This document shows, piece by piece, positions 6,663 through 62,899 of a stretch of DNA of 64,000 nt. Numbering within the stretch: the stretch's first letter is position 1; each line of letters starts with the position of its first letter. A program made the position numbers and the translations under genes. The notes under the pieces are model-generated. The model searched no databases. It saw nothing but the letters and a program-made list of their open reading frames with translations, and was not told the DNA's origin. Origin of the DNA: an uncultured Chitinophagales bacterium (GTDB taxonomy: Bacteria; Bacteroidota; Ignavibacteria; UBA10030; UBA6906); contig CAZIHJ010000004.1 of assembly GCA_964538485.1 (NCBI GenBank), forward strand, positions 5,836 through 69,835, in the 5' to 3' direction.

Positions 6663-8150
6663 CTACGCGGCAACGTTCCTTTGCCGTGAGGACATTGGCA
6701 GTTCAAACTTGAATCGAGTCCCTTTTCCAACCTGACTTTCGACAGTGATGGATTCGCCATGGACGTCGAGAATTTTCTTCACAATCGCCAGACCCAATCC
6801 TGCTCCGCCCGTCTTTCCGTTCGTTCGTGACTGATAGAATCTTTCAAATACAAAAGGCAGGTCGCTCGCCGGTATTCCAACACCTGTATCTTCAATGTAG
6901 ACCCTCACTCTGTCACCCTGGCGTTCCAGCACGATACGCACTTCTCCACCGGTATGCGTATGGACAACTGCGTTGTCAAGCAGATTTTGCAGCACGCGTT
7001 CGATGAGGCCAATGTCTGCCTCCACCATCGGCAAATTTTCCTGAAAACTGGACATGAGCTTCACTTGCTTTTTCTCAACAATGGGGGCAAACTTCTGAAT
7101 GAGGTCGTTTGCAAGTTCGGAAAGGGAAAATGGTTCGGCATGCAGTTGTGTTTGCCTCGCTTCGAGTTTAGAAAGCTCAAACAGGTCCTGCACAAGCCTG
7201 CTCAGTCGCTTGGTGCTGCTGAAGACAACCTCGAGGGAATTCCGGCGCTCTTCCGCGGTCAGGTTTGTGTCTTTCATGAGTACTGTTTCAAGGTAGCCCT
7301 GCATTGATGCAAGAGGAGTGCGCAGGTCATGGGAGACGTTGGCAATCAGCTCCCTGCGAAGCGTATCCGTGCGCTGCAGTTCTCCCACCTGTGTGGCAAG
7401 CGTCTCGGCCATAGAGTTGAATGCCCTGCCGAGATCATCCAGCTCGTCGTTTGACGTGATTGTCATCCGCTGAGAATAGTCCCCCTCTTTAAGGGCGAGA
7501 GCTGTGCGCGTTAACCGCCGCAACTTCTTCGTAACGAACCCAATCGCGACGAGGCCAATGACTCCTGCTGCAAAAAAACTAACGAGCACGCCTCGCACAG
7601 CCAAAGTCAGGATGTGGCTTTGTCGAATCCGATCGGCGACAGAGTCAAACTCCTCGCCGCGCAGAATGACGTAGACATATCCATCCGTCATTCCGTTCAA
7701 TAGTACCGGCGCTGCAGAGAAAACTTTGGGTGTGTGGATGTCGCGAGGATTATCTCCAAGGACGAGCTTCTTCCCATCCGAAGCCAGGAATTCATTGATT
7801 GGCTGAAGCGACACTGATGTGGCGGTCACTTTTTCCTTCGGAGCATCAAACGTGAGAATTGTTCCTTCCGCGTCAAGCAGGTACACCTCTACGCTCGGGT
7901 TGACGACCATGACATCATGAAACAACTTGGCCATTCCGTCAAGGTTCGGCTTTCCATCAACGAATGGGCGGATATCATCTACGATATGCCGGGCCAGAGA
8001 TGCGTTAATGCGCTGACTCGTCTCTGCAAAATACATCTCACTGGAAAACAGCGTCAGATAGGTGTATGCCCCCCCGACGAACAAGAGCAAAACCAGAAAA
8101 ACAGCAGACAGCTTCCAATACAAGCTTCGAAAGAACCCCCTGAACATCAC
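6663..8150 (-). CDS. Two-component sensor histidine kinase (TM, HAMP, HisKA, HATPase_c)
   Basis: 495 aa. N-terminal TM segment, second TM plus HAMP, H-box SHDLRTPLASMQGY, ATP-lid DTGVGIP..GLGLAI. A 4-nt overlap with the upstream response-regulator stop suggests an operon. Confidence 0.85.
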   Translation of the reverse strand: MMFRGFFRSLYWKLSAVFLVLLLFVGGAYTYLTLFSSEMYFAETSQRINASLARHIVDDIRPFVDGKPNLDGMAKLFHDVMVVNPSVEVYLLDAEGTILTFDAPKEKVTATSVSLQPINEFLASDGKKLVLGDNPRDIHTPKVFSAAPVLLNGMTDGYVYVILRGEEFDSVADRIRQSHILTLAVRGVLVSFFAAGVIGLVAIGFVTKKLRRLTRTALALKEGDYSQRMTITSNDELDDLGRAFNSMAETLATQVGELQRTDTLRRELIANVSHDLRTPLASMQGYLETVLMKDTNLTAEERRNSLEVVFSSTKRLSRLVQDLFELSKLEARQTQLHAEPFSLSELANDLIQKFAPIVEKKQVKLMSSFQENLPMVEADIGLIERVLQNLLDNAVVHTHTGGEVRIVLERQGDRVRVYIEDTGVGIPASDLPFVFERFYQSRTNGKTGGAGLGLAIVKKILDVHGESITVESQVGKGTRFKFELPMSSRQRNVAA

Positions 8151-8851
8151 TCCTCATCGGCAAATTTGTATCCCAGACCCCACACGGTGAGAATGTACTG
8201 GGGGTTTGCAGGATCTTGTTCAATCTTAGCTCGCAACCTGTTGATATGTGAGTTCACGGTGTGATCATAGCCATCGAACTTGTACCCCCACACAGTATCA
8301 AGAAGCCCCTGCCTTGAATAGGCCTTTCCAGGGTTCCTGGCAAACAAGGCAAGCAGATCAAATTCTTTTGCGGTCAGTTCAACCTTGCCACCTTTGCAAA
8401 GAACAGTGCGTTTCTCTAAATCAATTTTCAGATCTCGAAAGTGTATTTGCTTCTTCGCAATGCCCGAGACATCATCCTTTACTGCATCGACACGGCGAAA
8501 GATTGCTTTCACCCTCGCCAGTAGCTCCCGCACACTAAACGGCTTCGTGAGATAATCGTCCGCACCAAATTCCAGTCCGAGCACTTTGTCAAATTCCTCG
8601 GAACGCGATGTAAGCATGAGAATTGGAGTGTAATTCCTCTCCGATCGAAGCTCTTTGCAAATCTCAAGGCCGTCGATGCCTGGAAGCATAAGGTCAAGAA
8701 TGATGAGATCATAGTGATTCTTTAGTGCCTTCTGCAGCCCGGCCTCTCCATCATTGGCGACATCGCATTTGCATCCCAGATCAGTTATATGCATCTCGAC
8801 GAGTTTTGAAATGTCCCGGTCATCTTCAACAATGAGAACCTTTTGGTTCAT
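8147..8851 (-). CDS. OmpR-family response regulator (REC + winged-helix)
   Basis: Start chosen at MNQKVLIVEDDRDISK (ATG at 8849-8851). Receiver Asp pocket, and C-terminal trans_reg_C motif ...RLRAKIE...P..I.TVWGLGYKF. Confidence 0.85.
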   Translation of the reverse strand: MNQKVLIVEDDRDISKLVEMHITDLGCKCDVANDGEAGLQKALKNHYDLIILDLMLPGIDGLEICKELRSERNYTPILMLTSRSEEFDKVLGLEFGADDYLTKPFSVRELLARVKAIFRRVDAVKDDVSGIAKKQIHFRDLKIDLEKRTVLCKGGKVELTAKEFDLLALFARNPGKAYSRQGLLDTVWGYKFDGYDHTVNSHINRLRAKIEQDPANPQYILTVWGLGYKFADEE

Positions 8852-8964
8852 GGCTTGGAGGGTTCCTTTCGCCCTTGGGACGGTAACGGTTGGCTCTGAG
8901 AACATACGGAATCTCCTTGAGAATTTACACTGAAACAAAGTAACAGCCAAATATCACGAGATTA

Positions 8965-10038
8965 TCACGAAACCATGACAGTAGCATCCGCATCAATCAC
9001 TTCGGAGGATTGAGCACCCATTCTTCTCAGTGATCCCGGTTTATACACCCGCCACATCGAATCAGCGAAGTAGCGGCGCGAATCGAAGAGATGCTCGTAC
9101 ACTTCAAAGCCTGTCTCCCCTGCAAGTTGCTCGATCTCAGAAACGAGATATTTGTAGGAATATTCCGTGTGAATTGGCTCCCATGCCTCAAAATGAAACC
9201 ACCTCCCGATCTTTTCAACGAACACCGATTGCTTCTCGAGGCTCACGACATAACTCTCCATTCCACCGGAAAACACATCGTAGGTCCCGAAGTGGCGCCA
9301 TTTGCTCACATCGAAGTTTCCCCCGAGCTCCCGATTGATGCGATGAAGGAGGTTCAAATTAAAGTCCCGCGTTACTCCCTGAGAATCATTGTAAGCCCGG
9401 AGCAACATGTCGATGTCCTTCTTCAGATCAAAACCGATAAGAATCACATCATCATGATTGAGACAATTCCAGAGATTCCGCAAGAGGACGCAGTTTTCGG
9501 CATGCGTGAAATTCCCGATGGAAGAGCCCATAAAAAGAACGAGGTTCTTTCGTTTCGAACGATTGTTCAGCCATTTTAATCCGTTGAAATAGTCGGTGAC
9601 AAGTCCATTCGCCTGAAGAGCCGGGAACTGATTGTCGAGTGACGCTATGAGCGCTTGCATAGCACCCTCGGAGATATCAATAGGAACATATTGAAAGTCG
9701 AGCTTCTGCTCGATAAAGCAATTCAAGAGTGTTGTTGTTTTCCTGCTGAATCCAGCCCCAAGTTCCACGAGATTAAATGGCTGATCGTAATCGACGTAGT
9801 GCGCAATGGTAGAGCTGTTCCGTTGTATGATTTCCAGTTCGCAGCCGGTGGGATAGTATTCCGGCAATTCAGTGATCCTGGTGAAGAGCTCACTCCCCCG
9901 TTTGTCATAGAAATATTTGGAGGAGAGTTTTTTCTTCGGTGATGAAAGCCCTACCAGGACATCAAGGGCGAACGCATCTGTCTCGTTGAACGAGTCAGCG
10001 TAGTCGGTTTCGTGAAGAATCTTATACGTTGGTGGCAT
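8965..10038 (-). CDS. egtD: L-histidine N-alpha-methyltransferase (ergothioneine biosynthesis, EgtD)
   Basis: 357 aa. YFYDKRGSELFTRITELPEYYPTGCELEII matches the EgtD hallmark WFYDxxGSxLFxxIxxLPEYYPTRxExxIL, followed by the ELGAG SAM-binding motif. Confidence 0.8.
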   Translation of the reverse strand: MPPTYKILHETDYADSFNETDAFALDVLVGLSSPKKKLSSKYFYDKRGSELFTRITELPEYYPTGCELEIIQRNSSTIAHYVDYDQPFNLVELGAGFSRKTTTLLNCFIEQKLDFQYVPIDISEGAMQALIASLDNQFPALQANGLVTDYFNGLKWLNNRSKRKNLVLFMGSSIGNFTHAENCVLLRNLWNCLNHDDVILIGFDLKKDIDMLLRAYNDSQGVTRDFNLNLLHRINRELGGNFDVSKWRHFGTYDVFSGGMESYVVSLEKQSVFVEKIGRWFHFEAWEPIHTEYSYKYLVSEIEQLAGETGFEVYEHLFDSRRYFADSMWRVYKPGSLRRMGAQSSEVIDADATVMVS

Positions 10039-10050
10039 GGTTCCTCCGTT

Positions 10051-11370
10051 TCACATGGTGTCGGATGCAAGGCGAAATCCCGTGAACTGCCAGCGCTTAT
10101 CACACTGGAAGAAGTTGCGGTACGTTGGCCGGATGTGTGTCCGCGGAGTAGCGCACGATCCTCCACGCAGAGTCATCTGGTTGATCATGAACTTTCCATT
10201 ATATTCCCCGAGAGGTCCCTTCTCCTGCTGGTAGCCAGGGTATGGTAAGTAGGAACTGCCCGTCCATTCCCACACATCACCATACATTTGCGAAATTCCC
10301 GACGTATCAACTCCCGGGGCATGACCGAGAGGAACGGGATGAAAGTTCTGCATTTCGAGAAAGTTTCCGCACGAAGCCGATGTCTTTACTGATGCTGCAG
10401 CCTTCTCCCACTCAACCTCCGTTGGCAATCGTTTGTCCGCCCATCGGGCGTACGCCGATGCTTCGTAATAGCTCACATGACTCACCGGTTCATCCTTTTC
10501 TATTGAGCGAATGCCTGACATTGTAACGATCCGCCATTCTCCATCTTTCTTCTCCCAGTACAATGGAGCTTGCCATCCATCTTTCGTCACGATCTCCCAC
10601 CCGTCCGAAAGCCAGAGAAGGGGATTCTGATAACCGCCGTCATTCATGAACTCCAGGAAATCTCCGCAAGTCACCAGACGATCCATCAACCCGAAGTCAT
10701 TCACAAACGCTTTGTGCCGGGGCAACTCATTATCCCAGGCGAAGCCTTTGTTTCCTGCACCCATTTCAAAGATGCCTCCCTGAATACCAATGAATTTCAC
10801 AGGAGAGAGAAGAGGTTTGGTCATTTGGGGTCGGGTCTGCTTGTACACGGGACGAAGGGGATTCGATGCGAGTAAATGCTTGATATCGGTAACCAGAAGC
10901 TCTTGGTGCTGTTGCTCATGGTGGAGACCCAATTCAATCAGCGCAGAAACCTTTCGGTAATCATTTTCTCCGACAGATTGAATAAGCGAACGCGTTTGTT
11001 CGTTGATTGCAGTCCGGTAATCGTAGACGTCCTTAACGGTCGGCCGTGAGAGTGTTCCCCGAATGTCCCTGCTCCATCGCTCACCGAAGCTCTGATAGTA
11101 AGAGTTGAAAAGAACGTAGTAATGTTCGTTGTACGGTTGATAGGTTCGGGAGAACTGCTGCAGGATCACCCGTTCAAAGAACCAGGTGGTATGGGCGAGA
11201 TGCCATTTCGGTGGACTGACATCAGCCATGGACTGGATGACGTAGTCTTCCGTAACAAGCGGTTGACAAATTTCTTCTGTCACCCGCCGGACGCTGTCAA
11301 ATGCAGCCAGCAGATCGTGTCGTTCCATTGGAGCCCTCATGATTGGATGCTGATGAATTCGTGTCTGCAT
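10051..11370 (-). CDS. egtB: Ergothioneine biosynthesis sulfoxide synthase EgtB (DinB_2 + FGE-sulfatase domains)
   Basis: 439 aa. KWHLAHTTWFFE, HHEQQHQELL (DinB-like iron site), RLPTEVEWEKAA and LRGGSCATPRTHIRPTYRNF..FTGFRLA (FGE-sulfatase C-domain) align with Mycobacterium EgtB landmarks. Confidence 0.8.
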   Translation of the reverse strand: MQTRIHQHPIMRAPMERHDLLAAFDSVRRVTEEICQPLVTEDYVIQSMADVSPPKWHLAHTTWFFERVILQQFSRTYQPYNEHYYVLFNSYYQSFGERWSRDIRGTLSRPTVKDVYDYRTAINEQTRSLIQSVGENDYRKVSALIELGLHHEQQHQELLVTDIKHLLASNPLRPVYKQTRPQMTKPLLSPVKFIGIQGGIFEMGAGNKGFAWDNELPRHKAFVNDFGLMDRLVTCGDFLEFMNDGGYQNPLLWLSDGWEIVTKDGWQAPLYWEKKDGEWRIVTMSGIRSIEKDEPVSHVSYYEASAYARWADKRLPTEVEWEKAAASVKTSASCGNFLEMQNFHPVPLGHAPGVDTSGISQMYGDVWEWTGSSYLPYPGYQQEKGPLGEYNGKFMINQMTLRGGSCATPRTHIRPTYRNFFQCDKRWQFTGFRLASDTM

Positions 11371-11546
11371 GAATGTGCTGAAGAAGTATCACGAAAGTGT
11401 CAACGCCAGGTAAACCTGTGGTGATAATTCGATGAGCATCGACATAGATCTTTTATCCCGGATGGACCGTTTCGTGACCATCGGCAGGCATATTGTATTC
11501 CATCAACAATGAACGATCACTACCACCAGTTAGCAAGGAGGCGGGA

Positions 11547-11756
11547 ATGCGAGTACATGAGGTATTGTTTGATGATTTTTTTGCAAGAAGAATCCCCGAT
11601 GAAGGATTCACGCTTGAGGAAGTCTATGAGGAATACTTTGGATTGATCCACGAGAGGCAGGAGAATCGCCCTGAATTGCATGGGCACGTTGTAACAATGG
11701 ATGGAAACGTTGTTGTCCCGGAATTGCGACCGTCAGTCGCACCGTTCGCAGCATAA
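11547..11756 (+). CDS. Small acidic hypothetical protein (69 aa)
   Basis: ATG MRVHEVLFDDFF... preceded by a strong RBS AAGGAGG with 6-nt spacing. Sub-ORF of listed ORF 11493..11756. No recognised domain. Confidence 0.35.
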   Translation: MRVHEVLFDDFFARRIPDEGFTLEEVYEEYFGLIHERQENRPELHGHVVTMDGNVVVPELRPSVAPFAA

Positions 11757-11778
11757 CTTATCATCATTGGAGGTACCT

Positions 11779-11931
11779 ATGGACGCGTTTGACTATGATA
11801 CCATCGCCCCTGTCATTAACGATTACATCGGTGACGAACTCACATTCGAAGACTTGAAAAAGGGCTTCTCGGCATTCCTCGAAGACGAACGATCAGAGTC
11901 CATTGCATTGGTTGCGGTCGAAACCAGATGA
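11779..11931 (+). CDS. Small acidic hypothetical protein (50 aa), translationally coupled to the MIP channel gene
   Basis: MDAFDYDTIAPVINDYIGDELTFEDLKKGFSAFLEDERSESIALVAVETR. RBS GGAGGT 5 nt upstream. Its TGA overlaps the ATG of the next gene (ATGA at 11928-11931). Confidence 0.4.
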   Translation: MDAFDYDTIAPVINDYIGDELTFEDLKKGFSAFLEDERSESIALVAVETR

Positions 11932-12713
11932 ATGACGCTTTGCGAAAACACTGGCCCGAATATCTCATGGAAGCGGCAGAGCTCGGGATCTTCATGATCT
12001 CCGCAGCAACGGTCGGCGTCTTGTTGGGGCATCCGAATTCGATCATTCATCAATCACTGCCCGACCCATTCGTACGGCGTGTTCTGGGAGGATGTGCCAT
12101 GGGCATCACAGCGATCTGTCTTATCTACTCACCGTGGGGAAAACAGTCGGGTGCACATATGAATCCAGCTCTGACTCTGACATTTCTCCGACTCGGCAAA
12201 ATCAAACGGTTGGATGCTCTCTTCTATATTTTCGCCCAGTTTGCGGGTGGAGTTACAGGAGTCGTCGTTGCAAAGACATTTCTTGGAGCCAGTTTGGGTC
12301 ATCCGTCGGTGAACTATGTCGCTACACTGCCCGGACCATGGGGAAGTGGGGCCGCATTCGCTGGAGAGTTTGTCATTGCCTTTCTAATGATGTCAATGGT
12401 CCTCTGGGCATCCCACTCGGCAACTCTTTCACCCTACACAGGTCTATTTGCGGGCCTTCTCGTGGCGTTGTACATCACACTTGAAGATCCGCTCTCCGGT
12501 ATGAGCATGAACCCCGCGCGAACATTTGGTTCGGCTATCTCAGCAATGCGATGGGATGCGCTGTGGATTTACTTCACAGCCCCTCCTCTTGCGATGCTTT
12601 TGGCAGGGGAAATGTACATCAGGCGAAAGGGACAACTGGCGGTTGCTTGTGCCAAGTTCCATCATGAGAATGACAAGCGTTGCATCCATTGCGGCGCAAA
12701 CATGAACACGTGA
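11928..12713 (+). CDS. MIP family channel (aquaporin/aquaglyceroporin-like) with a Cys/His-rich C-terminal tail
   Basis: 261 aa. Two NPA boxes (SGAHMNPALT and GMSMNPART), six predicted TM segments. Tail CAKFHHENDKRCIHCGANMNT. Confidence 0.8.
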   Translation: MNDALRKHWPEYLMEAAELGIFMISAATVGVLLGHPNSIIHQSLPDPFVRRVLGGCAMGITAICLIYSPWGKQSGAHMNPALTLTFLRLGKIKRLDALFYIFAQFAGGVTGVVVAKTFLGASLGHPSVNYVATLPGPWGSGAAFAGEFVIAFLMMSMVLWASHSATLSPYTGLFAGLLVALYITLEDPLSGMSMNPARTFGSAISAMRWDALWIYFTAPPLAMLLAGEMYIRRKGQLAVACAKFHHENDKRCIHCGANMNT

Positions 12714-12755: not shown

Positions 12756-13607
12756 ATGAAACATGTGCTTTCTGCACTCTTACTATCGCTTATCTTTTCC
12801 AGCTTGAGCCATGCCCAGGTTATATCCAAGAAGACTCTGACGCTCGAGGGGGCCAAACGGGTCATTGGAGCAGCCGTGGAAGAAGCAAAGAGACTCAACG
12901 CACCCGGTGGGGCGATTGCGGTCGTAGATGATGGCGGCAATCTTATCGCGGTCGAACGTCTCGATGGCACATTTGCCGCGGGAGCTCTCATCTCGATCGG
13001 TAAGGCCCGCACATCCGCTCTCTTCAAAAGACCGACCAGTTTCTTCGAGGATGTCATCAAGAAGGGTCGGACGCCCATGGTCGCGTTGAATGATTTTACT
13101 CCACTGCAGGGCGGCGTTCCGATCGAAGTTGATGGACAAGTCGTCGGTGCAGTCGGCGTGAGCGGCGCATCAAGCGCTCAACAGGATGAAGAGCTTGCGC
13201 TTGCCGGAGTGAAGGCACTGCAAGGGGGAACGGGAGGCAACATGGACGTGAAGTATTTCAAGGGTAACTCTGTCGCCGAGGCATTTAAGAAAGGGATGCC
13301 CCTCGTTGAAAACGGTCAGTATAAAGTCCATGCGAGTCACCGTGATGGTCCCGGTATGGCCGAGGTGCATACGAGGGATACTGATATCATTTATGTGCAG
13401 GAAGGAAATGCGACCCTCGTCATCGGCGGGACAGTTGTGGATGGAAAGCAAATCGAAACAAATGAAATTCGTGGGGTGTCAATCGTGAATGGTGAGACCA
13501 GGGCCCTTGCGAAAGGCGATGTCGTCGTGGTGCCGAACGGGATTCCGCACTGGTTTAAAGAGGTGCGCGGACCGCTCAATTACTATGTCGTAAAGGTAAC
13601 CGAATAG
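12756..13607 (+). CDS. Exported GlcG/HbpS-like (DUF336) domain fused to a C-terminal cupin domain
   Basis: Signal peptide MKHVLSALLLSLIFSSLSHAQ. GlcG-like segment GGAIAVVDDGGNLIAVERLDG...VGAVGVSGASSAQQDEELA. C-terminal cupin-like beta-barrel ...IYVQEGNATLVIGG...GDVVVVPNGIPHWF. Confidence 0.7.
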   Translation: MKHVLSALLLSLIFSSLSHAQVISKKTLTLEGAKRVIGAAVEEAKRLNAPGGAIAVVDDGGNLIAVERLDGTFAAGALISIGKARTSALFKRPTSFFEDVIKKGRTPMVALNDFTPLQGGVPIEVDGQVVGAVGVSGASSAQQDEELALAGVKALQGGTGGNMDVKYFKGNSVAEAFKKGMPLVENGQYKVHASHRDGPGMAEVHTRDTDIIYVQEGNATLVIGGTVVDGKQIETNEIRGVSIVNGETRALAKGDVVVVPNGIPHWFKEVRGPLNYYVVKVTE

Positions 13608-13648: not shown

Positions 13649-15340
13649 ATGAAATTGAAATACACATTACTACTGCCAATCCTTTCGGTTATTTGCATGG
13701 GTTCCTCAGCCCGTGTAAACGCCGAACTTCCTGCGGGTGCGGCTGCTGCAACGGTTGATCTCGCAACTGACGCGGGTGTTGCACTCGTGAAAGGTCAATG
13801 GAGATACAGTGAAACGAAGATCATCGAAACAGACTTTTGGGAGCCCGGACCGGATGGTCAACCGGGAACCACGCCGACGAAAACATACGACTACGCTCCG
13901 CACGCTGGTGGAGTGAACTTTGATGATTCACAATGGGAAATAGTACCTCCGACCTCACTCTCAAAGCGCAGAGGCAACGGCCGGCTCTTCTTCAACTGGT
14001 ATCGCATCGCGATCACCGTGCCGGAGAAGATCGATGATATGTCCGCGTCCGGTTCAACTGTAGTGTTCTCTACCTCGCTTGATGACTATGCCGAAATTTG
14101 GGTGGATGGGGAATTGAGCCGTTCCCTTGGACAGTCAGGTGGTTCCATCGTTGCGGGGTGGAATGCAGAGAATAAGCTTGTAATCGGTCGCAACGTAAGG
14201 CCCGGACAGGTGATTCAGCTTGCGGTCTTCGGCATCAATGGTCCGATCTCCAACCCCCCTGCGAATTACATTTACCTGCGATATGCAACGCTTGAGTTTC
14301 ATCCCGGCTCGTACGCTCCTGTTGCCCTGACTCCAACCGAAGTGAATGTTGAGGTGGATCGGCATGATCCCGCCATCAATGCAATCGTTTCACTCAATCC
14401 AAAGATATTCAAGTTGGCGGATGGGTTTCGGTTTACTGAGGGACCAATCTGGGTAAGAGACGGCAAGTATCTTCTCTTCAGCGATCCGAACAGTAACATC
14501 ATCTGGAAATACACAAGCGATGGCAAACTCTCCGTTTTCCGGGAGAAGAGTGGCTACGCAGGAGCGGATATTGGTGAATACGGTCAGCCCGGCTCCAACG
14601 GCATGACCGTGGATCCGCAGGGAAGACTGACAATCGACCAGCATGGGAACCATCAAATCATCCGGATTGAGAATGATGGCAACGAGACAGTCCTTGCGGA
14701 CAAGTATCAGGGCAAGCGACTCAATAGTCCAAACGACCTCGTTTATCGCTCCGATGGAACACTGTTCTTCACCGATCCTCCGTTCGGATTGCCGAAGGTC
14801 TTCGATGACCCGCGCAAAGAGTTGAGCTTCAGCGGGGTTTACTCGATCTACAAAAGAAAGCTCCAACTGCTGACAAGAGAATTCACCGGCCCGAATGGTA
14901 TTGCCCTTTCTCCTGACGAAAAGTATCTCTATGTCGGCAATTGGGATGAGAAGGCAAAAGTAGTAAAGCGATACGAAGTGAACGCGGACGGTACGGTGAA
15001 AAATGGGACGCTCTTCTACGATTTCACCAGCGCGCCCGGTGAAGATGCGATAGACGGTGTAAAAGTCGATCAACTCGGCAATGTCTACGTGTCGGGTCCG
15101 GGTGGGTTGTGGATAATCTCCGCACAGGGCAAGCATCTGGGGACAATCAAAGCGCCCAAGCATATCCACAATATGGCTTGGGGAGATGATGATGGAAAGA
15201 CATTGTACCTATGCGCACGTGGATCATTGTACCGGATGAGGCTGAGCGTCGCCGGAGCCGGATTAAACATTGGAGCCCCCGCATTGGGAAGCAACCAGGG
15301 AACTCACCAAACCGACCACGGGGAGATCTACAATAAATGA
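13649..15340 (+). CDS. Exported two-domain protein: N-terminal jelly-roll-like domain + SMP-30/gluconolactonase/LRE-like beta-propeller
   Basis: 563 aa with signal peptide. The C-terminal half (FRFTEGPIWVRDGKYLLFSDPNSNIIWKY...GKRLNSPNDLVYRSDGTLFFTDPPFGLP) is a paralog of 17177..18202. The antisense 259-aa ORF 14390..15169 is rejected. Confidence 0.75.
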   Translation: MKLKYTLLLPILSVICMGSSARVNAELPAGAAAATVDLATDAGVALVKGQWRYSETKIIETDFWEPGPDGQPGTTPTKTYDYAPHAGGVNFDDSQWEIVPPTSLSKRRGNGRLFFNWYRIAITVPEKIDDMSASGSTVVFSTSLDDYAEIWVDGELSRSLGQSGGSIVAGWNAENKLVIGRNVRPGQVIQLAVFGINGPISNPPANYIYLRYATLEFHPGSYAPVALTPTEVNVEVDRHDPAINAIVSLNPKIFKLADGFRFTEGPIWVRDGKYLLFSDPNSNIIWKYTSDGKLSVFREKSGYAGADIGEYGQPGSNGMTVDPQGRLTIDQHGNHQIIRIENDGNETVLADKYQGKRLNSPNDLVYRSDGTLFFTDPPFGLPKVFDDPRKELSFSGVYSIYKRKLQLLTREFTGPNGIALSPDEKYLYVGNWDEKAKVVKRYEVNADGTVKNGTLFYDFTSAPGEDAIDGVKVDQLGNVYVSGPGGLWIISAQGKHLGTIKAPKHIHNMAWGDDDGKTLYLCARGSLYRMRLSVAGAGLNIGAPALGSNQGTHQTDHGEIYNK

Positions 15341-16284
15341 AAGAGAATCTTATGAAGTGGCTCTACGCTCTCCCTTTCTTTCTCACAAGCTGCGTTGGGA
15401 CGGAATATATCGATGACCCGGTTTCACCCGAACAGGTTGCGTCGCGGGTAGTGATTTCTCCTTTGAATGCGGCGGTTCAGGTTGGATTCAGTTTGCAGTT
15501 GCATGCTGCGCTGGTAAATTCTGTTGGAGACAGCTCCTTACCTCAGGAAGTGCAATGGTCCAGCTCGAACACGACGGTGGCTACAGTCAATCCCGGCGGT
15601 CTTCTTGTTGGGTTGCAGCCGGGGCAAGTACGGATTTCAGCCCGGCATATTGATCTGGTGAGTTCGCCCGCGCTCGTCACGGTCGTTGCAGATCCAAATC
15701 AGGTTGCCCGGGTTGTCGTGTCGCCTCATGCTGTACAACGGAACATCGGTGGAATGCAGCAGTTCACCGCAACTGCATACAATTTGAGCGGCGATGTGCT
15801 GGCGGGAAGAATTCCGGCGTGGGCCAGTTCCAACACGTCAGCTGTCTCAATCAATTCGAACGGGCTTGCGACGGCTCTCACTGAGGGTGCAGCATCAATC
15901 AGTGCAGTCATTGACGGAATCGAAAGCGGGCCCTCTCTGTTTACCGTTGTCGATAATGTCGTAAGCCGGACGGGAACATTTGTCATGCGACCGGGTAGCG
16001 GTCACAACGTGCAGGGAACAGCAACTCTCAGCCGTCGAACAAACGGCAGCCTGGTTCTTGCGTTTGGATCAGACTTTGCCAGCGCAGGTGGGCCGGATGT
16101 CGAAGTATATCTTTCAACTACAAACTCCGTCGGGGCAAACAGCATCAGTGTAGGTAACCTCCAGAGGTTCTCGGGTGCCCAAAGCTACAATGTGCCTTCC
16201 GGAGTCCAGTTGAACAGTTATGATTGGGTCATCATTCACTGCGTGCCATTTAATATCACGTTCGGCTATGCACGCCTGCAGTAA
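15337..16284 (+). CDS. Lipoprotein with bacterial Ig-like (Big_2) repeats and a C-terminal DM13 domain
   Basis: Lipobox FFLTSC. Two Big_2-like repeats (...VQWSSSNTTVATVNPGGLLVGLQPGQVRISA... and ...PAWASSNTSAVSINSNGLATALTEGAASISA...). The C-terminal ~100 aa (GSGHNVQGTATLSRRTNGSLVLAFGSDFASAGGPDVEVYLS...) has the same architecture as the two repeats in 21994..22851. The ATGA overlap with the upstream gene suggests translational coupling. Confidence 0.65.
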   Translation: MKENLMKWLYALPFFLTSCVGTEYIDDPVSPEQVASRVVISPLNAAVQVGFSLQLHAALVNSVGDSSLPQEVQWSSSNTTVATVNPGGLLVGLQPGQVRISARHIDLVSSPALVTVVADPNQVARVVVSPHAVQRNIGGMQQFTATAYNLSGDVLAGRIPAWASSNTSAVSINSNGLATALTEGAASISAVIDGIESGPSLFTVVDNVVSRTGTFVMRPGSGHNVQGTATLSRRTNGSLVLAFGSDFASAGGPDVEVYLSTTNSVGANSISVGNLQRFSGAQSYNVPSGVQLNSYDWVIIHCVPFNITFGYARLQ

Positions 16285-18202: not shown

Positions 18203-18386
18203 GGATGTTACAAGAAACGGTGACGGGAAATGAGGCCAGCCGACGTTGCACACTTCGGCAGGCTTTTGGGCAGTTCAAAACATTCCACACCTTTGTGATG
18301 GTTCTGCAATCGTTACCGACTATCTTTGGTCAGCAGCGGACATCATTAGTCTATTAATCAACCACATGACAGGATGAACAAAACGC

Positions 18387-18968
18387 ATGAAGGGCAGGAT
18401 TTTGACGGCGACGATCGTTGCAGGAATCTTGTTAGTTGTTTTGACACAAGCATTTCCCCGGAATGGTCGAAACCGCGTAACGACATTGAATAGTTCGAAG
18501 GAAATGACATTGGAGACTGCAACATTTGGTGCGGGGTGTTTCTGGCACGTCGAAGATACATTCCGTCGGATTGAGGGTGTTGTAAGCACAGCCGTAGGTT
18601 TTGAGGGTGGAACTCTCCCCAACCCGACGTACAAGGACGTGTCCACAGATCTCACTGGCCATGCCGAGGTTGTACAGATCCAGTTTGACCCTGCAAAGGT
18701 ATCGTATCAGAAACTGCTGGAAGCATTTTTCGAGCTCCACGACCCGACCACGCTCAATCGTCAGGGTCCGGATATCGGAGTGCAGTATCGATCGGCTGTC
18801 TTCTACCATTCCCCTCACCAGAAGGCAAGTGCCGAGGCATTGAAGGCAAGGCTCGGTTCGAGCGGTCGTTACAAGCGGCCAATCGTCACCGAGATAGCAC
18901 CGGCCTCAACCTTTTGGAGAGCGGAGGAATATCACCAGCAGTACTACGAGAAACAACGCGGCCGATAA
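18387..18968 (+). CDS. msrA: Peptide-methionine (S)-S-oxide reductase MsrA, with N-terminal hydrophobic leader
   Basis: 193 aa. Active-site [12 protein letters not shown]. The roughly 45-aa N-terminal extension [23 protein letters not shown]... looks like a signal peptide or anchor. Confidence 0.85.
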
Positions 18969-18986
18969 CAGTAAGAGGAACACCAT

Positions 18987-19490
18987 ATGAAAACAGCAAT
19001 GCTTGGAATCGTGGTACTGGCCTGGGTAACAATGCTCAACGCCGCAGTCAAGAATCTTCTACTCTATTCTGCAGAGAAGAAAGGATTTGTCATGGCTGAA
19101 AAGATTGTGAAGGACGACCAGGAGTGGAAGAAGCAACTCACCCCCGTGCAGTTCGATGTGACGCGCAAGAAAGGAACCGAACGTGCGTTTACCGGTGAAT
19201 ACTGGAATCATCACGAGACCGGCGTCTACAAATGCATCTGTTGTGGAACGGATTTGTTCCGATCGGAAACGAAATACGAATCTGGAACTGGATGGCCGAG
19301 CTTTTATCGACCAATTGCAAAAGAGAACGTGAAGGAAGATACTGACAACAGTTTCTTCATGTCCCGCACGGAAATCTCGTGCGCCCGCTGCGATGCGCAT
19401 CTTGGCCACGTGTTCGATGATGGACCAAAGCCCACCGGACTACGATACTGCATGAACTCCGCTGCGTTGAAGTTCGAGAAGGGCAAATAG
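18987..19490 (+). CDS. msrB: Peptide-methionine (R)-S-oxide reductase MsrB (possible signal peptide)
   Basis: 167 aa. CICCGTDLF...[16 protein letters not shown] zinc and catalytic motifs. RBS AGAGGAA before the ATG at 18987. An alternative internal start MAEKIV (19092) would remove the leader. Confidence 0.85.
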
Positions 19491-19527: not shown

Positions 19528-19653
19528 TGCTCGATTTCCCGGTCGCTCCGCTGTTTTGCCATCCCTGCTTGATACTCCCGTGACTTCGTTCCGCTATTTT
19601 GAATCAGTTTCATCGCAACCCCTTGGAATCGTACCGACTTAGAGGATTACTTC

Positions 19654-21018
19654 ATGAATGCATCATCGAAAGCCCGGGTACTCATTCTCGGCGGAGGATT
19701 TGGCGGCCTTTATGCAGCCCTGGAACTCGAGAAGACCATCGCCAGAGATCCGAATGTGGAGATCACGCTTATCAACAGGGAAAACTACATTCTCTTCACT
19801 CCAATGTTGCACGAAGTAGCTGCAAGCGACCTCGACATCACTCATATCGTCAATCCCATCCGCAAGCTTCTCAAACGTATTCGCTTTTTCCATGGCGAAG
19901 TTGAATCAATCGACCTGGTCGGGAAACGCGTTGTCGCCACCCACGGGAATGAACACCATGACCATGAACTCGAGTATGATCACCTCGTGATTGCGCTCGG
20001 ATCTGAAACCAACTTCCACAACCTCCCCGGCAAGGACAATGCCGTCACGATGAAGTCTCTTGGCGACGCCATACATTTGAGAAACCGCATTATCGAGAAC
20101 CTTGAAGCTGCTGATTTTGAGTGCTTCCCGGATATTCGTGAGCCCCTGTTGACCGTCGTCGTGGCAGGAGGAGGATTTGCCGGTGTTGAAACAATTGCTT
20201 CCGTCAACGATTTCATGCGTGAAGCGCTCAGATTCTACCCTCATCTCAACGAGAAGATGCTCCGACTTGTGCTTGTCCATTCCGGTATGGTCATTCTGCC
20301 TGAACTTGGAGACAAACTGGGGACGTACGCGCAACGGAAGCTTGCTCAACGCAACGTGGAGATTAGAACAAATGCGCGCGTGAAATCATTCACTCATTCA
20401 ATTGTCGAACTGAGCGATGGATCGACAATCAAGGCTGACACGCTTATATGGACGGCAGGAACGTCACCCTGCGCTCTCCTAGAAACACTCCCATGCACAA
20501 AAGACCATGGGCGAATTGTGGTCAATAAGTTCCTGGAAGTTGACGGATTCCCGGGAGTGTGGGCTCTCGGCGACTGCGCGCTTGTCTCCGATCCATACAC
20601 CGGAAAACCGTATCCTCCAACAGCCCAACATGCGTTGCGACAGGGGGAAGTCGTTGGACGGAACATCGTGGCCAGGGTCCGCGGGACTCAAAAGAGGCCG
20701 TTCACATTTAAGACAATTGGTGCACTTGCGACGATCGGGAGAAGAACCGGCGTCGCCCAGATCTTCGGGTTCAATTTCTCCGGTTTCATTGCCTGGTGGA
20801 TGTGGCGAACAATTTATCTGAGCAAACTTCCTCGCTTCGAAAAGAAGGTCCGGGTTGCGCTGGATTGGACGTTGGATCTTCTTTTCTCAAAAGACCTCGT
20901 GAAGTTCGAGACGGTCAGGGCAAGGGCCGTTTCCAGTCCACACGATCAAGGTGAAGACCACAGTGTGGCAACAAGACCTTCAAGATCGTCCGCAAGCCGT
21001 GCAACTGTCGAGGTGTAA
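19654..21018 (+). CDS. Type II NADH dehydrogenase / FAD-dependent pyridine nucleotide-disulfide oxidoreductase
   Basis: 454 aa. Two Rossmann dinucleotide motifs (VLILGGGFGGLYAA and TVVVAGGGFAGVE). NDH-2-like C-terminal membrane-anchoring helices. Confidence 0.75.
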   Translation: MNASSKARVLILGGGFGGLYAALELEKTIARDPNVEITLINRENYILFTPMLHEVAASDLDITHIVNPIRKLLKRIRFFHGEVESIDLVGKRVVATHGNEHHDHELEYDHLVIALGSETNFHNLPGKDNAVTMKSLGDAIHLRNRIIENLEAADFECFPDIREPLLTVVVAGGGFAGVETIASVNDFMREALRFYPHLNEKMLRLVLVHSGMVILPELGDKLGTYAQRKLAQRNVEIRTNARVKSFTHSIVELSDGSTIKADTLIWTAGTSPCALLETLPCTKDHGRIVVNKFLEVDGFPGVWALGDCALVSDPYTGKPYPPTAQHALRQGEVVGRNIVARVRGTQKRPFTFKTIGALATIGRRTGVAQIFGFNFSGFIAWWMWRTIYLSKLPRFEKKVRVALDWTLDLLFSKDLVKFETVRARAVSSPHDQGEDHSVATRPSRSSASRATVEV

Positions 21019-21953: not shown

Positions 21954-21993
21954 ACAAACAAAACATTCAAATATGAAATGGAGGATATACAAC

Positions 21994-22851
21994 ATGAGCA
22001 GGAAATCATTATTGATCGTTCTCGGATTGGTTGTCGCTTCAATCGGCTGGTATGCCTTTCGTCCCGAACGACTCTTCATCAACGAAGAAGTGAACGAAAG
22101 CTTCCCGGCAGTGGGGGTACAGAACTCGAACATGCCTGAACCGCTTTCGTATGGCATGTTCCGTGGAGTCGCACACGATGCACGCGGCACGGCAACAATC
22201 TACAAGCTTGCGGATGGCAAGCGCGTTCTTCGGTTCACGGATTTCGAGACATCAAATGGCCCCGACCTTAACGTGTACCTGGTCGCGGCAGAGGATGCCA
22301 GGGACAACGAGACGGTAACAAAGACCGGCTTCATTCAGCTTGGGTCAATCAAGGGTAACAAGGGAGATCAGAACTACGATGTTCCAGCCGACATTGACCT
22401 CAACAAGTACAAAGCTGTCACCATTTGGTGCCGACGGTTCGGAGTGAATTTCGCCACGGCTCCTTTGATGGTAAAGAACGCAGAGCCTGTTGTTGTCTCC
22501 CAAGGCAACTTTCACGGGGTCTCCCACGAGACAAGGGGCACGGCATCAATCTACAAATTGGCAGATGGCAAAAAGGTGCTCCGTTTGACCGGGTTCGAGA
22601 CTTCCAATGGTCCTGATGTGCAAGTATATCTCGGATACGCGCAGGATGCGAACGACGATGAGACTGTGACACGGGCCGGTTTCTACCACCTCGCAGCTCT
22701 CAAAGGAAACAAGGGCGACCAGAACTATGAGATTCCCGGAGCCGTGGAGCTTGGCAAGGTGAAATCTGTGACCGTTTGGTGCAAACGGTTCGGGAAGAAC
22801 TTCGGCACTGCCCCGCTGACCTCGACATCTCAGAAGCTGGCGTCCATGTAG
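21994..22851 (+). CDS. Exported protein with two tandem DM13 domains
   Basis: Start at MSRKSLLIVLGLVVASIGWYAF, with GGAGGA 8 nt upstream. Two ~105-aa repeats (F(R/H)GV(A/S)H(D/E)(A/T)RGTA(T/S)IYKLADGK(R/K)VLR(F/L)T(D/G)FETSNGPD(L/V)(N/Q)VYL...GNKGDQNY(D/E)(V/I)P...WC(R/K)RFG(V/K)NF(A/G)TAPL) match the DM13 architecture. Confidence 0.65.
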   Translation: MSRKSLLIVLGLVVASIGWYAFRPERLFINEEVNESFPAVGVQNSNMPEPLSYGMFRGVAHDARGTATIYKLADGKRVLRFTDFETSNGPDLNVYLVAAEDARDNETVTKTGFIQLGSIKGNKGDQNYDVPADIDLNKYKAVTIWCRRFGVNFATAPLMVKNAEPVVVSQGNFHGVSHETRGTASIYKLADGKKVLRLTGFETSNGPDVQVYLGYAQDANDDETVTRAGFYHLAALKGNKGDQNYEIPGAVELGKVKSVTVWCKRFGKNFGTAPLTSTSQKLASM

Positions 22852-22972: not shown

Positions 22973-23081
22973 CAATATCTGAGGTATGCCGCTTTGAGAT
23001 GTTTTATTCTCCCATGACCATTTCGTGACTTTTGTTGGCCACATTGTCGACACTTCATTTTTATACTATCTGGAGATTGAC

Positions 23082-58518: not shown

Positions 58519-61500
58519 CTACCTCAACAACAGCATTTTCCTTGATTCCGAGAGGGTAATCCCGACCCCTCCATCCGGAACAAGGTCTAACCTATAGAAG
58601 TAGAGGCCACTGGCAACGGCATTGTTGTTATCATTTGTGCCATCCCATTCAACCGTGTATGTGCCCTTGGAAACCTCCCGCTTCACCAGCGTCCTGATTA
58701 AGCGGCCAAGAATGTCATACACACGGAGTGTTGCGTTTCCATCGATGGGAATTCCATACCGGACGGTTGTAACCGGATTGAATGGGTTGGGATAGTTCTG
58801 ATCAAGCGAAAAAGCAATCGGGCTGTCTTCAATGCCCTGAAGTCGCAACGAGATCGACTGCGGATACTCCACAAGGACCTCACCCTCGTGCAGGAGCGAG
58901 ATCACCCGATTGCCAACAACGAGCCACGCCGCCATAGGGTGTTCTTGTTCCCCCCACCGTAATGAAATTGGAAACGTAGCGGCGGAAATTTTCAACGTAG
59001 TTTCTTTGTGATCCGCACCAGCAAATTCCATCATCGTGTTCGATTCATAACGTATATCAAATGCGCCATCAGGGGGTAATGGTGGAAGCTCGTACGATTC
59101 AGAGGTGAAACGCCCCTCCGGGTTGCGCCCGTACAACAGTGATTGGGTTCGACCTTCTGCATCTTCCAGAATAAGAGAATTCGCCGCTGGTGGAGAAGCC
59201 GGTCCCGGTCGCGATGCGGGTCCCGATGATTGGTTTGCGAAAAGAACACCACTCTGTGATATCTTCACCCAATATCCCAAGGCCGGCTTCAAACTATCCG
59301 TCGCATAGTAGCTTCCGCCATACCCAAAGAATGACGTCCGAATAATACTGTCCGGTGATGAAGAAACACTGGCCACGCTCACGGGAACCGAGAGGGAACC
59401 TATCAGATTCCACCCGGCAGTGACAGCAATAGTGTCCGCAGAATAGGGATAGCCGGTGAAATTAAGCACAGGGTTCGTGAGTTTTGTCCAGTATCCTCTG
59501 CCATTACTCAATGTATCGCTTCTGAAATACTGATTCTGAAAACTATAGCTGAAAGGAATGATATAGGGACAAAGGACATTTACGGGAAGTGAATACAGCC
59601 GCCAGCTTGAGCCAAGATTTGCCTGAATACGGATAGCTCCCCCCGTTCCGGTTCCCGTACCCGAGAGATTCATCGAATCGACCGAAGTAATACCGTTATG
59701 CGTAAAGTAAACTTTCCCGGAGGCGAGACCCGGATTCAGAGGTGCATATATCACAGCCAATTTGAAACTGTCATTGGCATTGACGCTAAACGTGGGAGGG
59801 ACAACGGTGTAGTTTGCATTGTTGGTCACTGCCGTAACATTCAGGGCATTCACCTGTGCAAGATTTCGCACAATAACCGTGTCAACAAGCCGACATCCAA
59901 CTGCGATCGATCCGAAGGTGAGCATGTTACTGTTTGTGCCGAAACGCGGGGCTTCATATTTTATGACACTGTATACCGATCCGTCTTCTGTTTCCGAATA
60001 CCCTGCAACATAAACATTGCCGAGGGCATCAACGACGATCCCCTGCGGTTCGTCATTCAATTGCGCCGGATCATCATAGCGGGTAACCCATTGTTGCACT
60101 CCGGCAGGACTGTATCGGACCGTCGCATAGTCATAGCCAGACTTGAACAAGAAACTGTACCCGGTGACATAGACGTTTCCTTTGGAATCGAGGGCAACAT
60201 CGGCACCTATATCATCGTCATTTTCACCACTATTGTAACGGACGTTCCATTGCTGGACGCCGGAGGAATTGTACTTTATTGTAAGGAAATCGTATCCCAT
60301 GCCGGTGGCCTGGCTTCCCCCGGTCACGAACACGTTGCTTGATGCGTCAAGCTTCAGCATGGTTGGAACATCACTGGCATTTCCGGATCCTGAATAACGC
60401 ACAGCCCATTGCTGGACGCCGCTGCTGTTGTATCGAATTGTAGCGTAGTCAAATCCGGTTCCGATTCCCTCACTCGCCCCGGTTACAAACACGTTGTTGG
60501 TCGCATCCACCGCGATGGCGTATGCTTGATCCACACCATTCGCCGGCCCGCTATAACGCGAAACCCATTGTTGAGTCCCCGACGTATTATACTTCACCGT
60601 TGCAAAGTCAGATGTTCCCCCCGCCCCAACACTCGTACCAGTAACATACACATTTCCCCCTGCATCAAGCGCCAAATCCAAAGCGTTGTCAGTGGAATCA
60701 CCGGGTCCGTTATAAGAACCAGCCCATAATTGCGTTCCCGTGGTTTGATACTTGATCGTCAGGAAATCATTGCCACTGGCCGGGTCGAACCTGGCCCCGG
60801 TAACGTAGACATTGCCTGATCCGTCGACAGCGATGTCAGTTCCTTGATCGATCGCGCTCCCCCCACTTGCATATCTCACTGCCCAGATCTGGGCTCCATT
60901 CACATTGTATTTGACAGTTGCGATATCATAGCCCGTTGACACTCCGAAACTCGTTCCAGTCACATACGCATTGCCAAAGTTATCGATAACAATTGCCGAA
61001 ACGAAATCCTCAGCGTCACCAGTACCATTATAACGGGCGACCCACTGTGGAACGCCGGCAGAATTATACTTGACTGTCGCATAGTCACTCTGACTTTTTT
61101 GGTCGAAACTTGTTCCCGTGACATAAATATTCCCCGACGGATCGAGTGCCACCGCCGCTGCTTCATCGGCTGAGTTCCCCGGGCCATTATAACGTGTTGC
61201 CCACTGCTGCACTCCAACCGAACTGTATTTTACCGTAGCAATGTCTTCGTCGGTCACCAAACCATAGCTTGTCCCAGCCACGTATACATTTCCGAATCCG
61301 TCTACTGTCACCGCCGCTCCTGCATCATAGTCGGTGATATCCCCAGTGTAGCGTGCAACCCATGATTGCAGACCGAGAGAATTGTATTTCACGGTCGCAT
61401 AATCTTCAAATGTTCCTGAACCCGTGCTTGATCCCGTGACATAGACATTGCCTCCCGCATCGACAAATACCGACGCAGCGGCATCAAACGAGCTTCCCGG

Positions 61501-62868: not shown

Positions 62869-62899
62869 CCCATTCATCCTCATCACCATCATCCTGTAC

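Follow-up and report, generated by a model that had tools for sequence, protein, structure and literature searches.

The Neisseria protein PilB is a lipoprotein in which a thioredoxin domain, MsrA and MsrB are joined in a single chain fed by DsbD. Thiol-based extracytoplasmic methionine sulfoxide reductases (Msr) have been presented as fusion proteins of a few pathogens, single-domain MsrA and MsrB being mostly cytoplasmic (PMC8945050, PMC13488963). The periplasmic MsrAB of Haemophilus influenzae is served by a separate, operon-encoded extracellular redoxin (Trxe) and by CcdA (PMC9404787; reviewed in PMC13488963), and the membrane-tethered MsrAB2 of Streptococcus pneumoniae is reduced by Etrx1 and Etrx2, which are recharged by CcdA1 and CcdA2 (PMC3914529). 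In Bradyrhizobium japonicum, Blr7043 is a single-domain Msr with a signal peptide that belongs to the EcfF regulon; its predicted reductants, encoded at an unlinked site, are an anchored periplasmic thioredoxin and a DsbD-core membrane protein (Bll1026/Bll1027), co-regulated by an oxidant-responsive envelope regulator (PMC3420878). Other described systems are MsrPQ of Escherichia coli, with HprSR, and YedY1-MrpX of Azospira (PMC4436054). Here we describe an msrA-msrB gene pair (18387-19490) found in a 64,000-nucleotide stretch of contig CAZIHJ010000004.1 (assembly GCA_964538485.1; the whole stretch is hereafter called the window). Its products are two single-domain enzymes, unfused and each with its own leader. 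Both are predicted to be 1-Cys forms and would be exported and placed under two-component control; it is this combination, with no reductant gene linked to the pair in its lineage, that sets the locus apart.

Like the H. influenzae enzyme, the pair would be thiol-based and exported by a Sec-type route, with no fused thioredoxin domain. The likeness may extend to a relay made of an exported redoxin and a CcdA-type protein, and to induction by an envelope-sensing regulator under oxidant or chlorine stress. In contrast to H. influenzae, MsrA and MsrB are separate, have their own leaders and are both 1-Cys, the redoxin and CcdA genes lie outside the operon of the window (the redoxin gene is in the operon in two related loci, L086 and L089), and the regulator would be a two-component system instead of an extracytoplasmic function (ECF) sigma factor. 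With PilB the locus would share the placement of MsrA and MsrB outside the cytoplasm and the arrival of DsbD-family electrons through a TlpA/DsbE-like thioredoxin fold, but the three domains joined in PilB are all separate here, and redoxin-MsrB fusions were seen only in two Pyrinomonadaceae loci (L049 and L078). The S. pneumoniae system also combines an extracytoplasmic Msr with separate surface thioredoxin-fold proteins and CcdA recharging, and differs in that its host is Gram-positive, its MsrAB is fused and its thioredoxins are lipoproteins. Blr7043 of B. japonicum comes nearest to the arrangement proposed below as a precedent, but it belongs to another phylum, is governed by an ECF sigma/anti-sigma regulator and has identified reductant genes. 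MsrPQ and YedY1-MrpX are likewise periplasmic modules for methionine sulfoxide reduction with an oxidant-sensing envelope regulator encoded nearby. MsrP, however, is a quinol-fed molybdoenzyme and not a thiol enzyme; a Pfam search found no MsrPQ-type molybdoenzyme with a haem b partner in the window, which is also without a Met-rich protein.

The first gene, msrA (18387-18968, + strand), encodes a 193-aa peptide-methionine (S)-S-oxide reductase and the second, msrB (18987-19490, + strand), a 167-aa peptide-methionine (R)-S-oxide reductase that is zinc-binding by motif, both being putative exported 1-Cys forms located where the first-pass annotation had placed them. Only 18 nt separate the two genes, which form a two-gene operon, and a Shine-Dalgarno-like AAGAGGA read off the sequence (18973-18979, + strand) ends 7 nt 5' of the msrB ATG. 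The window has a G+C content of 52%, and the nearest genomes in a genome-collection scan were metagenome-assembled genomes of Ignavibacteriota, with MsrB identities of 69-72%; the host is a diderm bacterium related to Ignavibacteriota. For comparison we used the best 120 matches of each enzyme together with a set of fetched loci (numbered with an L), among which L081-L083 are the closest relatives (MsrB identity to the window 75-88%) and L085-L089 are more distant (69-72% where measured). The Pfam profile search of the window covered all open reading frames (ORFs) of at least 150 aa.

MsrB matched PF01641 over residues 51-164 (E=5.7e-55, 184.7 bits) and TIGR00357 with 211.9 bits against a cut-off of 113, and it harbours two CxxC zinc motifs (Cys83/86 and Cys132/135) and the catalytic Cys155 (codon 19449-19451) within RYCMNS. 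Residues 1-19 (18987-19043, + strand) make up a predicted Sec-type signal peptide consisting of MK, a 15-residue h-region and an LNA-A site, which by heuristics fits the classical layout, in which a basic n-region leads into an uncharged h-region of typically 7-15 residues and positions -3 and -1 hold small residues. The N-terminal hydrophobic leader noticed in the first-pass annotation is thus real: all 120 best MsrB matches have an equivalent signal peptide, commonly ending in LNA-G or AGA-G, and an AXA-like site was found in 113 of 117 homologs. We also considered the leader as a lipoprotein signal and rejected it, since the lipobox-like cysteine of some homologs is a tryptophan in the window and the clade shows W, Y, C or L at this position. 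The ratio of non-synonymous to synonymous substitution rates for the MsrB signal peptide was 0.17 relative to L081, the only usable value given that synonymous sites were saturated beyond this closest relative, and with leader segments of about 20 codons each the ratios were uninformative overall.

The start of msrB deserved separate attention, because the reading frame contains an internal ATG at 19092 (Met36) that had been listed as an alternative. This codon falls inside the N-terminal hairpin of the mature protein (19050-19106, + strand), in a segment conserved after the signal peptide in 120 of 120 homologs (KLKLYSxEKKGYVMxEKVVK). The cytoplasmic MsrB of Methanothermobacter, of solved structure (PDB 2k8d), aligns from query residue 25, and the hairpin therefore belongs to the folded domain. 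A start at Met36 would halve this conserved hairpin, so the upstream start stands, and on these comparative grounds the msrB start can be firmly assigned to the ATG at 18987, as previously proposed. The ribosome-binding site invoked in support of that choice was only partly borne out, as AAGAGGA is present upstream of 18987 but an AAGGA also lies 6 nt 5' of the in-frame ATG at 19092 (19081-19094); the ribosome-binding-site argument alone cannot fix the start, and conservation does. The internal AAGGA is probably a by-product of conserved Lys-Lys-Gly codons, and initiation at Met36 may still occur at a low level.

In eukaryotes, MsrB3A is sent by a signal peptide to the endoplasmic reticulum, an oxidising compartment. 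Human MsrB3 (PDB 6q9v/6qa0, E=7e-50) and 2k8d (E=2e-56) were the best structural relatives of the window MsrB; both share with it the two CxxC zinc motifs and a Thr/Ser at the resolving-Cys position, and 2k8d also the hairpin. They differ from it in that 2k8d is cytoplasmic and has no leader, and MsrB3 is eukaryotic.

MsrA matched PF01625 over residues 44-191 (E=8.5e-63, 211.6 bits, cut-off 23.7) and TIGR00401 (204.4 bits, cut-off 108.1), its catalytic Cys51 (codon 18537-18539) lies within GCFWH, and Y82, E94, Y134 and the remaining invariant substrate-binding columns of an alignment of 43 sequences are kept. Its N-terminus begins with MKGR, followed by 19-20 uncharged residues and by a linker of about 20 residues up to the domain. 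We assigned residues 1-22 (18387-18452, + strand; MKGR, hydrophobic stretch, TQA-F) to a leader, either a Sec signal peptide or an N-in signal anchor, and residues 23-43 (18453-18515, + strand) to the linker. The extension reported previously as about 45 aa therefore exists, but measures 43 residues before the Pfam domain. A leader of equal length and character was carried by 40 of the 120 best MsrA matches, which confirms this leader too; the other best matches were 156-aa proteins without one. Within the leader-bearing clade the layout was constant: after Met and two further residues come a Lys/Arg and an uncharged stretch of about 16 residues (median 16), then a small-x-small site, and a conserved G-G-K-R-A-(S/T)-T-L motif is followed by about 10 linker residues. 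Hydrophobicity of the leader was kept in the 40 homologs and the sequence itself was not. An AXA-like site was found in all 40, though by a permissive rule, reading TQA-F in the window and SFA-G in many homologs. The basic motif of the linker (18462-18491, residues 26-35, consensus GGKRA[ST]TLN) is clade-wide among leader MsrAs and missing in the cytoplasmic homologs. In an AlphaFold2 model of MsrA (mean pLDDT 78.9), residues 3-21 formed a helix, residues 22-42 were disordered and the domain started at residue 43; the basic motif was modelled as disordered (pLDDT <50), so that the model gives it no role, and the helix carries no orientation information.

The cysteine content of both enzymes also set them apart from thioredoxin-recycled forms. 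Cys51 is the only cysteine of the window MsrA, which is without a C-terminal resolving Cys and falls outside the 2-Cys/3-Cys thioredoxin-recycled subclass. A cysteine within the last 12 residues was found in 0 of 40 leader-bearing MsrAs compared with 62 of 72 cytoplasmic homologs, the former ending in ...YYEKQRG and those of the latter with the cysteine in ...ASC(H/P)I, and the active-site motif was GCFWH in 40 of 40 leader MsrAs and GCFWG in 67 of 72 cytoplasmic homologs. In MsrB, the resolving-Cys position of 2-Cys enzymes (GCGWPSF) is occupied by a threonine (SGTGWPSF), as it is in 119 of 120 homologs. Judged by these residues, MsrA and MsrB are both 1-Cys forms, and the predicted exported MsrA clade appears to have lost the C-terminal resolving Cys kept by its cytoplasmic relatives. 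With no resolving Cys, the sulfenic acid formed in catalysis needs direct reduction by an external thiol. Loss of spare cysteines would be expected for proteins working in an oxidising compartment.

Further evidence on localization was provided by the MsrBs of other phyla, whose leaders are of the twin-arginine translocation (Tat) type in Acidobacteriota and of the lipobox type in Geobacteraceae and Bacteroidota. The exchange of one export signal for another is strong evidence that MsrB works outside the cytoplasm. Export leaders were assigned to 66 of the 77 MsrBs of the fetched loci and to about 84 of the 150 best cluster representatives, drawn from 1.84 billion proteins. From this evidence MsrB is very probably exported, and MsrA is likely to be, though with less confidence; the comparison of orthologs that the first-pass annotation had called for thus came out in favour of conserved leaders (40 MsrA and 120 of 120 MsrB homologs), and its view that both products are extracytoplasmic was supported. 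It should be considered, on the other side, that the export case rests on sequence features and comparative evidence, that leader classes across the fetched loci and cluster representatives came from a crude heuristic applied to ORFs with uncertain starts, and that 3-4 Lys/Arg residues occur within 15 residues after the MsrA leader, compared with 1-2 before it, a charge bias unusual for Sec substrates that leaves the topology formally ambiguous.

This charge distribution (means of 3.3 Lys/Arg after and 1.3 before the hydrophobic segment) would suit a cell in which nothing is exported, MsrA being inserted N-out/C-in to face the cytoplasm, MsrB starting at the internal ATG at 19092 behind its AAGGA, and cytoplasmic thioredoxin serving both, a state of affairs with which the lack of a periplasmic reductant gene in the window would also agree. 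We tried the positive-inside charge rule as a test of MsrA topology and set it aside as non-discriminating, since the clearly exported MsrB leaders show the same pattern. Moreover, 120 homologs conserve MsrB residues 1-35 at the protein level and residues 25-40 are part of a solved fold, the Tat or lipobox signals of MsrB orthologs would have no role in the cytoplasm, the leader MsrA clade is without the resolving Cys kept by cytoplasmic thioredoxin-dependent relatives, the msrA of L086 shares its operon with genes for an MsrB and a redoxin that both have signal peptides, and the hydrophobic run of MsrA, with its median of 16 residues, is short for a stable membrane helix. We therefore hold cytoplasmic retention of both enzymes to be improbable. 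Slightly less probable still is a dual localization, in which exported and cytoplasmic forms would arise from alternative starts at MsrA Met40 and MsrB Met36. MsrA Met40 lies exactly at the start position of the cytoplasmic homologs and a Met is found there in about half of the clade, and MsrB Met36 is conserved and preceded by AAGGA; however, the internal Met of MsrA is not clade-wide and its AAGGA ends 1 nt before the ATG, MsrB would lose half of the conserved hairpin discussed above, where the AAGGA is attributable to Lys-Lys-Gly codons, and cytoplasmic forms without the resolving Cys would differ from typical cytoplasmic relatives.

If both enzymes are exported, a reductant has to reach them. 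Only Msr domains were matched in either protein, in agreement with the earlier statement that no thioredoxin-fold domain is fused to them. The accompanying premise, that exported Msr enzymes normally need a dedicated periplasmic reductant such as a DsbD-fed thioredoxin domain or MsrPQ, proved too narrow, as unfused thioredoxin-like proteins and CcdA serve exported Msr in described systems (PMC9404787, PMC3914529). In L086 (the same locus as L002; Ignavibacteriota), msrA, msrB and a redoxin gene form an operon with overlapping stops and starts; the redoxin is a TlpA-like protein of 188 aa with a signal peptide, an FWTFACSNC motif and AhpC-TSA, Redoxin and Thioredoxin_8 matches, and L089 has the same msrA-msrB-redoxin arrangement. 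Such redoxins had been missed by a first neighbour clustering, owing to greedy ORF choice and a coverage filter, and were recovered by tblastn with the L086 protein: homologs with 40-54% identity directly adjoined an exported msrB in about 12 further loci. In about 10 of these the redoxin appeared to form the periplasmic portion of a larger protein, about 580 aa long, that has six transmembrane segments at its N-terminus and an SPCILP motif (L016, 8084-9817; L018, L021, L034, L039, L056, L060, L069, L074 and L075). These loci, from Acidobacteriota, Gemmatimonadales and Steroidobacteraceae, have its gene directly upstream of one for a Tat-signal MsrB, and some of them also encode a leader-bearing MsrA next to it. 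Pfam was applied to two of the proteins: the L016 protein matched DsbD_TM, Redoxin and Thioredoxin_10 and is a CcdA-redoxin fusion, and the L060 protein matched two redoxin-type domains and no DsbD_TM, its membrane part being deduced from hydropathy and the shared motif. The order of domains in this fusion is, we presume, that of Mycobacterium DipZ. A predicted relay running from cytoplasmic thioredoxin through CcdA/DsbD and a TlpA-like redoxin to Msr is thus repeatedly linked to this MsrB subfamily and, given export, a conventional TlpA-like redoxin route is the probable source of electrons for the window enzymes.

Several negative results count against this conclusion. Pfam found no member of the thioredoxin, redoxin, AhpC-TSA, DsbD or CcdA families among the window ORFs searched, and no redoxin, thioredoxin, CcdA or DsbD gene was found within 10 kb of msrAB in L081-L083, so that the reductant of this organism is proposed by analogy with relatives, with no candidate gene in the window. 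Likewise, a six-frame scan of the 64-kb window found no WCxxC motif in any ORF of at least 90 codons, and tblastn with the L086 redoxin gave no match in the window. These absences would also suit the unusual electron route suggested in the first-pass annotation, or any donor encoded in the surrounding gene island and without a thioredoxin fold, whether secreted DM13 proteins acting with the type II NADH dehydrogenase (NDH-2) and the quinone pool or ergothioneine made by EgtBD. The genes for NDH-2, DM13, glucose-methanol-choline (GMC) oxidoreductase and flavin mononucleotide (FMN) reductase are syntenic with msrAB in L081-L083, ndh and egtB stand behind the same putative regulator box as msrA, and small thiols can in principle be used by 1-Cys Msr enzymes; a supply of this kind, if true, would be a periplasmic Msr reducing route without precedent. 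The evidence of the relatives nonetheless speaks against it. DM13 and NDH-2 genes adjoin msrAB only in L081-L083 and in none of L084-L089, five of which (L085-L089) do have this leader-bearing msrAB pair, and in L086 and L089 the msrAB operon itself contains a conventional exported redoxin. The DM13 proteins have no CxxC motif and one conserved Cys per domain, and a search of the literature turned up nothing that connects ergothioneine with the regeneration of Msr enzymes. Close relatives would be expected to share gene order simply through common descent, and co-regulation explains the adjacency equally well: ndh shares the regulator box with msrA, which accounts for its position, and NDH-2 is most simply read as a co-regulated neighbour and not as a demonstrated electron donor. 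An island-encoded donor is accordingly very unlikely, and with an ordinary exported redoxin helper in relatives no exotic electron supply need be assumed, as far as these comparisons go.

Regulation of the pair was approached through its genomic context. A sensor histidine kinase (6663-8150, - strand) with two transmembrane segments around a periplasmic loop of about 145 aa and with HAMP, HisKA and HATPase_c domains (Pfam, hydropathy) is encoded in the window; given this topology, the kinase is predicted to sense the periplasm. Next to it lies an OmpR-family response regulator gene by Pfam (8147-8950, - strand), the true start of which is probably the ATG at 8851 (MNQKVLIVEDD). NCBIfam gave only generic OmpR-family matches for regulator and kinase, with no specific HprRS, CusRS or CpxRA assignment. 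In L086-L089, orthologous regulator and kinase genes are divergently adjacent to msrA; the window kinase is orthologous (47% identity) to the L086 kinase encoded in this way, and the window regulator is 64-68% identical to regulators divergently adjoining msrA in L086. Common to the regions upstream of msrA is GTGATACTTTCGTGA, in which GTGA is directly repeated with a period of 11 bp, a pattern expected for regulators of the OmpR type. Searching the whole window for the degenerate box TGAYACYTTYGTGAY with at most 2 mismatches gave five matches, compared with 1.75 expected, and five out of 100 shuffles also reached five.

One box (TGATAATCTCGTGAT, 8953-8967, - strand) precedes the gene of the response regulator and is itself preceded, at a distance of 11 nt, by a third GTGA repeat; a second (TGACACTTTCGTGAT, 11388-11402, - strand), a perfect match, precedes egtB and has an equivalent in L082 and L083; the putative msrA box (CCACACCTTTGTGAT, 18285-18299, + strand) is found 88 nt before the msrA start; a fourth (TGATACTCCCGTGAC, 19570-19584, + strand) lies 70 nt before the NDH-2 gene, is identical in L081 and has equivalents in L082 and L083; and the last (TGACCATTTCGTGAC, 23015-23029, + strand) precedes the gene for GMC oxidoreductase, which probably starts at 23079. 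Every one of the five lies in the sense orientation, at a distance of 18-102 nt from the gene start that follows it; as such a placement is open to only 5.7% of strand-specific positions, its probability by chance is about 6e-7, a figure to be read with the fact that three of the gene starts behind these distances were adjusted by judgement. That adjustment tells against the regulon, as does the msrA box being the weakest of the five, with 2 mismatches to TGAYACYTTYGTGAY. A box is, however, present at the equivalent position upstream of msrA in L081, L082, L086, L088 and L089, and among the relatives boxes stand before the genes for the regulator and FMN reductase as well as before egtB, msrA and ndh; L082 and L083 have tandem boxes ahead of a molybdoenzyme/cytochrome b561 operon beside msrB. 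The simplest reading is that the box marks a single candidate two-component regulon responding to oxidant or envelope stress. A scan for sigma-70 promoters and terminators between 17900 and 19900 gave nothing beyond shuffle expectation.

Taken together, the data would fit the following chain of events, which we regard as a whole with moderate confidence. An oxidant signal in the envelope would activate the kinase and regulator (6663-8950), acting through the direct-repeat box TGAYACYTTYGTGAY, and msrA-msrB would be induced, the genes for ergothioneine synthesis (egtBD), NDH-2 and GMC oxidoreductase sharing the box. MsrB would be exported by Sec and its signal peptide cut after about residue 19, and MsrA would be exported and either released or tethered by its leader to the outer face of the inner membrane. 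Each enzyme would reduce its own methionine sulfoxide stereoisomer on envelope proteins, the single catalytic Cys attacking the sulfoxide to give a sulfenic acid, with no intramolecular disulfide possible. An exported TlpA/ResA-like redoxin would then reduce the Cys-SOH directly and would itself be recharged by a CcdA/DsbD-family membrane protein with electrons from cytoplasmic thioredoxin, the genes for both presumably being unlinked in this lineage and located outside the window.

Leader-bearing Msrs of this kind were found in Ignavibacteriota, Acidobacteriota, Bacteroidota, Geobacteraceae, Gemmatimonadota and Proteobacteria, in many cases together with linked genes for TlpA-like or DipZ-like reductants, which suggests that unfused 1-Cys MsrA and MsrB with leaders are common in environmental bacteria. 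The principle was already known and its breadth has been under-appreciated, so that this amounts to a correction of emphasis; the practical results are a firm msrB start, a 1-Cys assignment for both enzymes and a candidate regulon that would explain the gene neighbourhood.

The island around msrAB has a shared order, with kinase, regulator, egtD and egtB on one strand, followed by aquaporin, HbpS-like/cupin, lactonase, msrA, msrB, NDH-2, spondin-like, DM13, GMC oxidoreductase and FMN reductase genes, and L081-L083 keep most of it, each with some genes missing or inserted. Both egtD (8965-10038, - strand) and egtB (10051-11370, - strand), the latter behind the perfect box, scored above NCBIfam equivalog cut-offs; ergothioneine biosynthesis genes are thus present in an Ignavibacteriota-like bacterium, and L082 and L083 have them in the same place. 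At the head of the island, and syntenic in L081-L083, are an aquaporin-family channel (11928-12713, + strand) and a secreted HbpS-like/cupin protein (12756-13607, + strand), which may be linked to peroxide handling. Downstream of msrB, the NDH-2 gene ndh (19654-21018, + strand) is followed by genes for a secreted spondin-domain protein (NF038123; 21085-21885, + strand) and its partner, a membrane-anchored double-DM13 protein (21973-22851, + strand), a pair kept in L081 and L083. A third DM13 protein (15337-16284, + strand) has Big_2 domains and a lipobox.

Elsewhere in the window, a beta-propeller-repeat protein of 1476 aa (58519-62949, - strand) ends in a C-terminal tail weakly resembling a type IX secretion sorting domain (Por_Secre_tail and CHU_C, E ~1e-3, below Pfam cut-offs), which, if real, would fit an origin of the window in the FCB (Fibrobacteres-Chlorobi-Bacteroidetes) group. 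A CxxCH scan of the window for c-type cytochromes, taken as an indirect sign of a CcdA pathway, revealed no convincing cytochrome.

Two kinds of gene beside msrAB in relatives recall the molybdoenzyme-based systems. Between msrB and ndh, L082 and L083 encode a sulfite-oxidase-family molybdoenzyme (Oxidored_molyb), a cytochrome b561 and a 91-aa ORF (10538-12651, - strand), an insert that appears to be an MsrPQ-like module recruited to the same regulon. In L086 (11214-11798), L089 (7155-7739) and L088 (7182-7799), msrA-msrB, with or without the redoxin gene, is followed by a gene for a secreted Met-rich protein of about 200 aa, with 11-15% Met, GMGMKHD-type repeats, no Pfam match and no homolog in the window. 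This protein is reminiscent of MrpX and may resemble that oxidant sink of Azospira, or may alternatively be involved in copper binding through its Met/His-rich composition.

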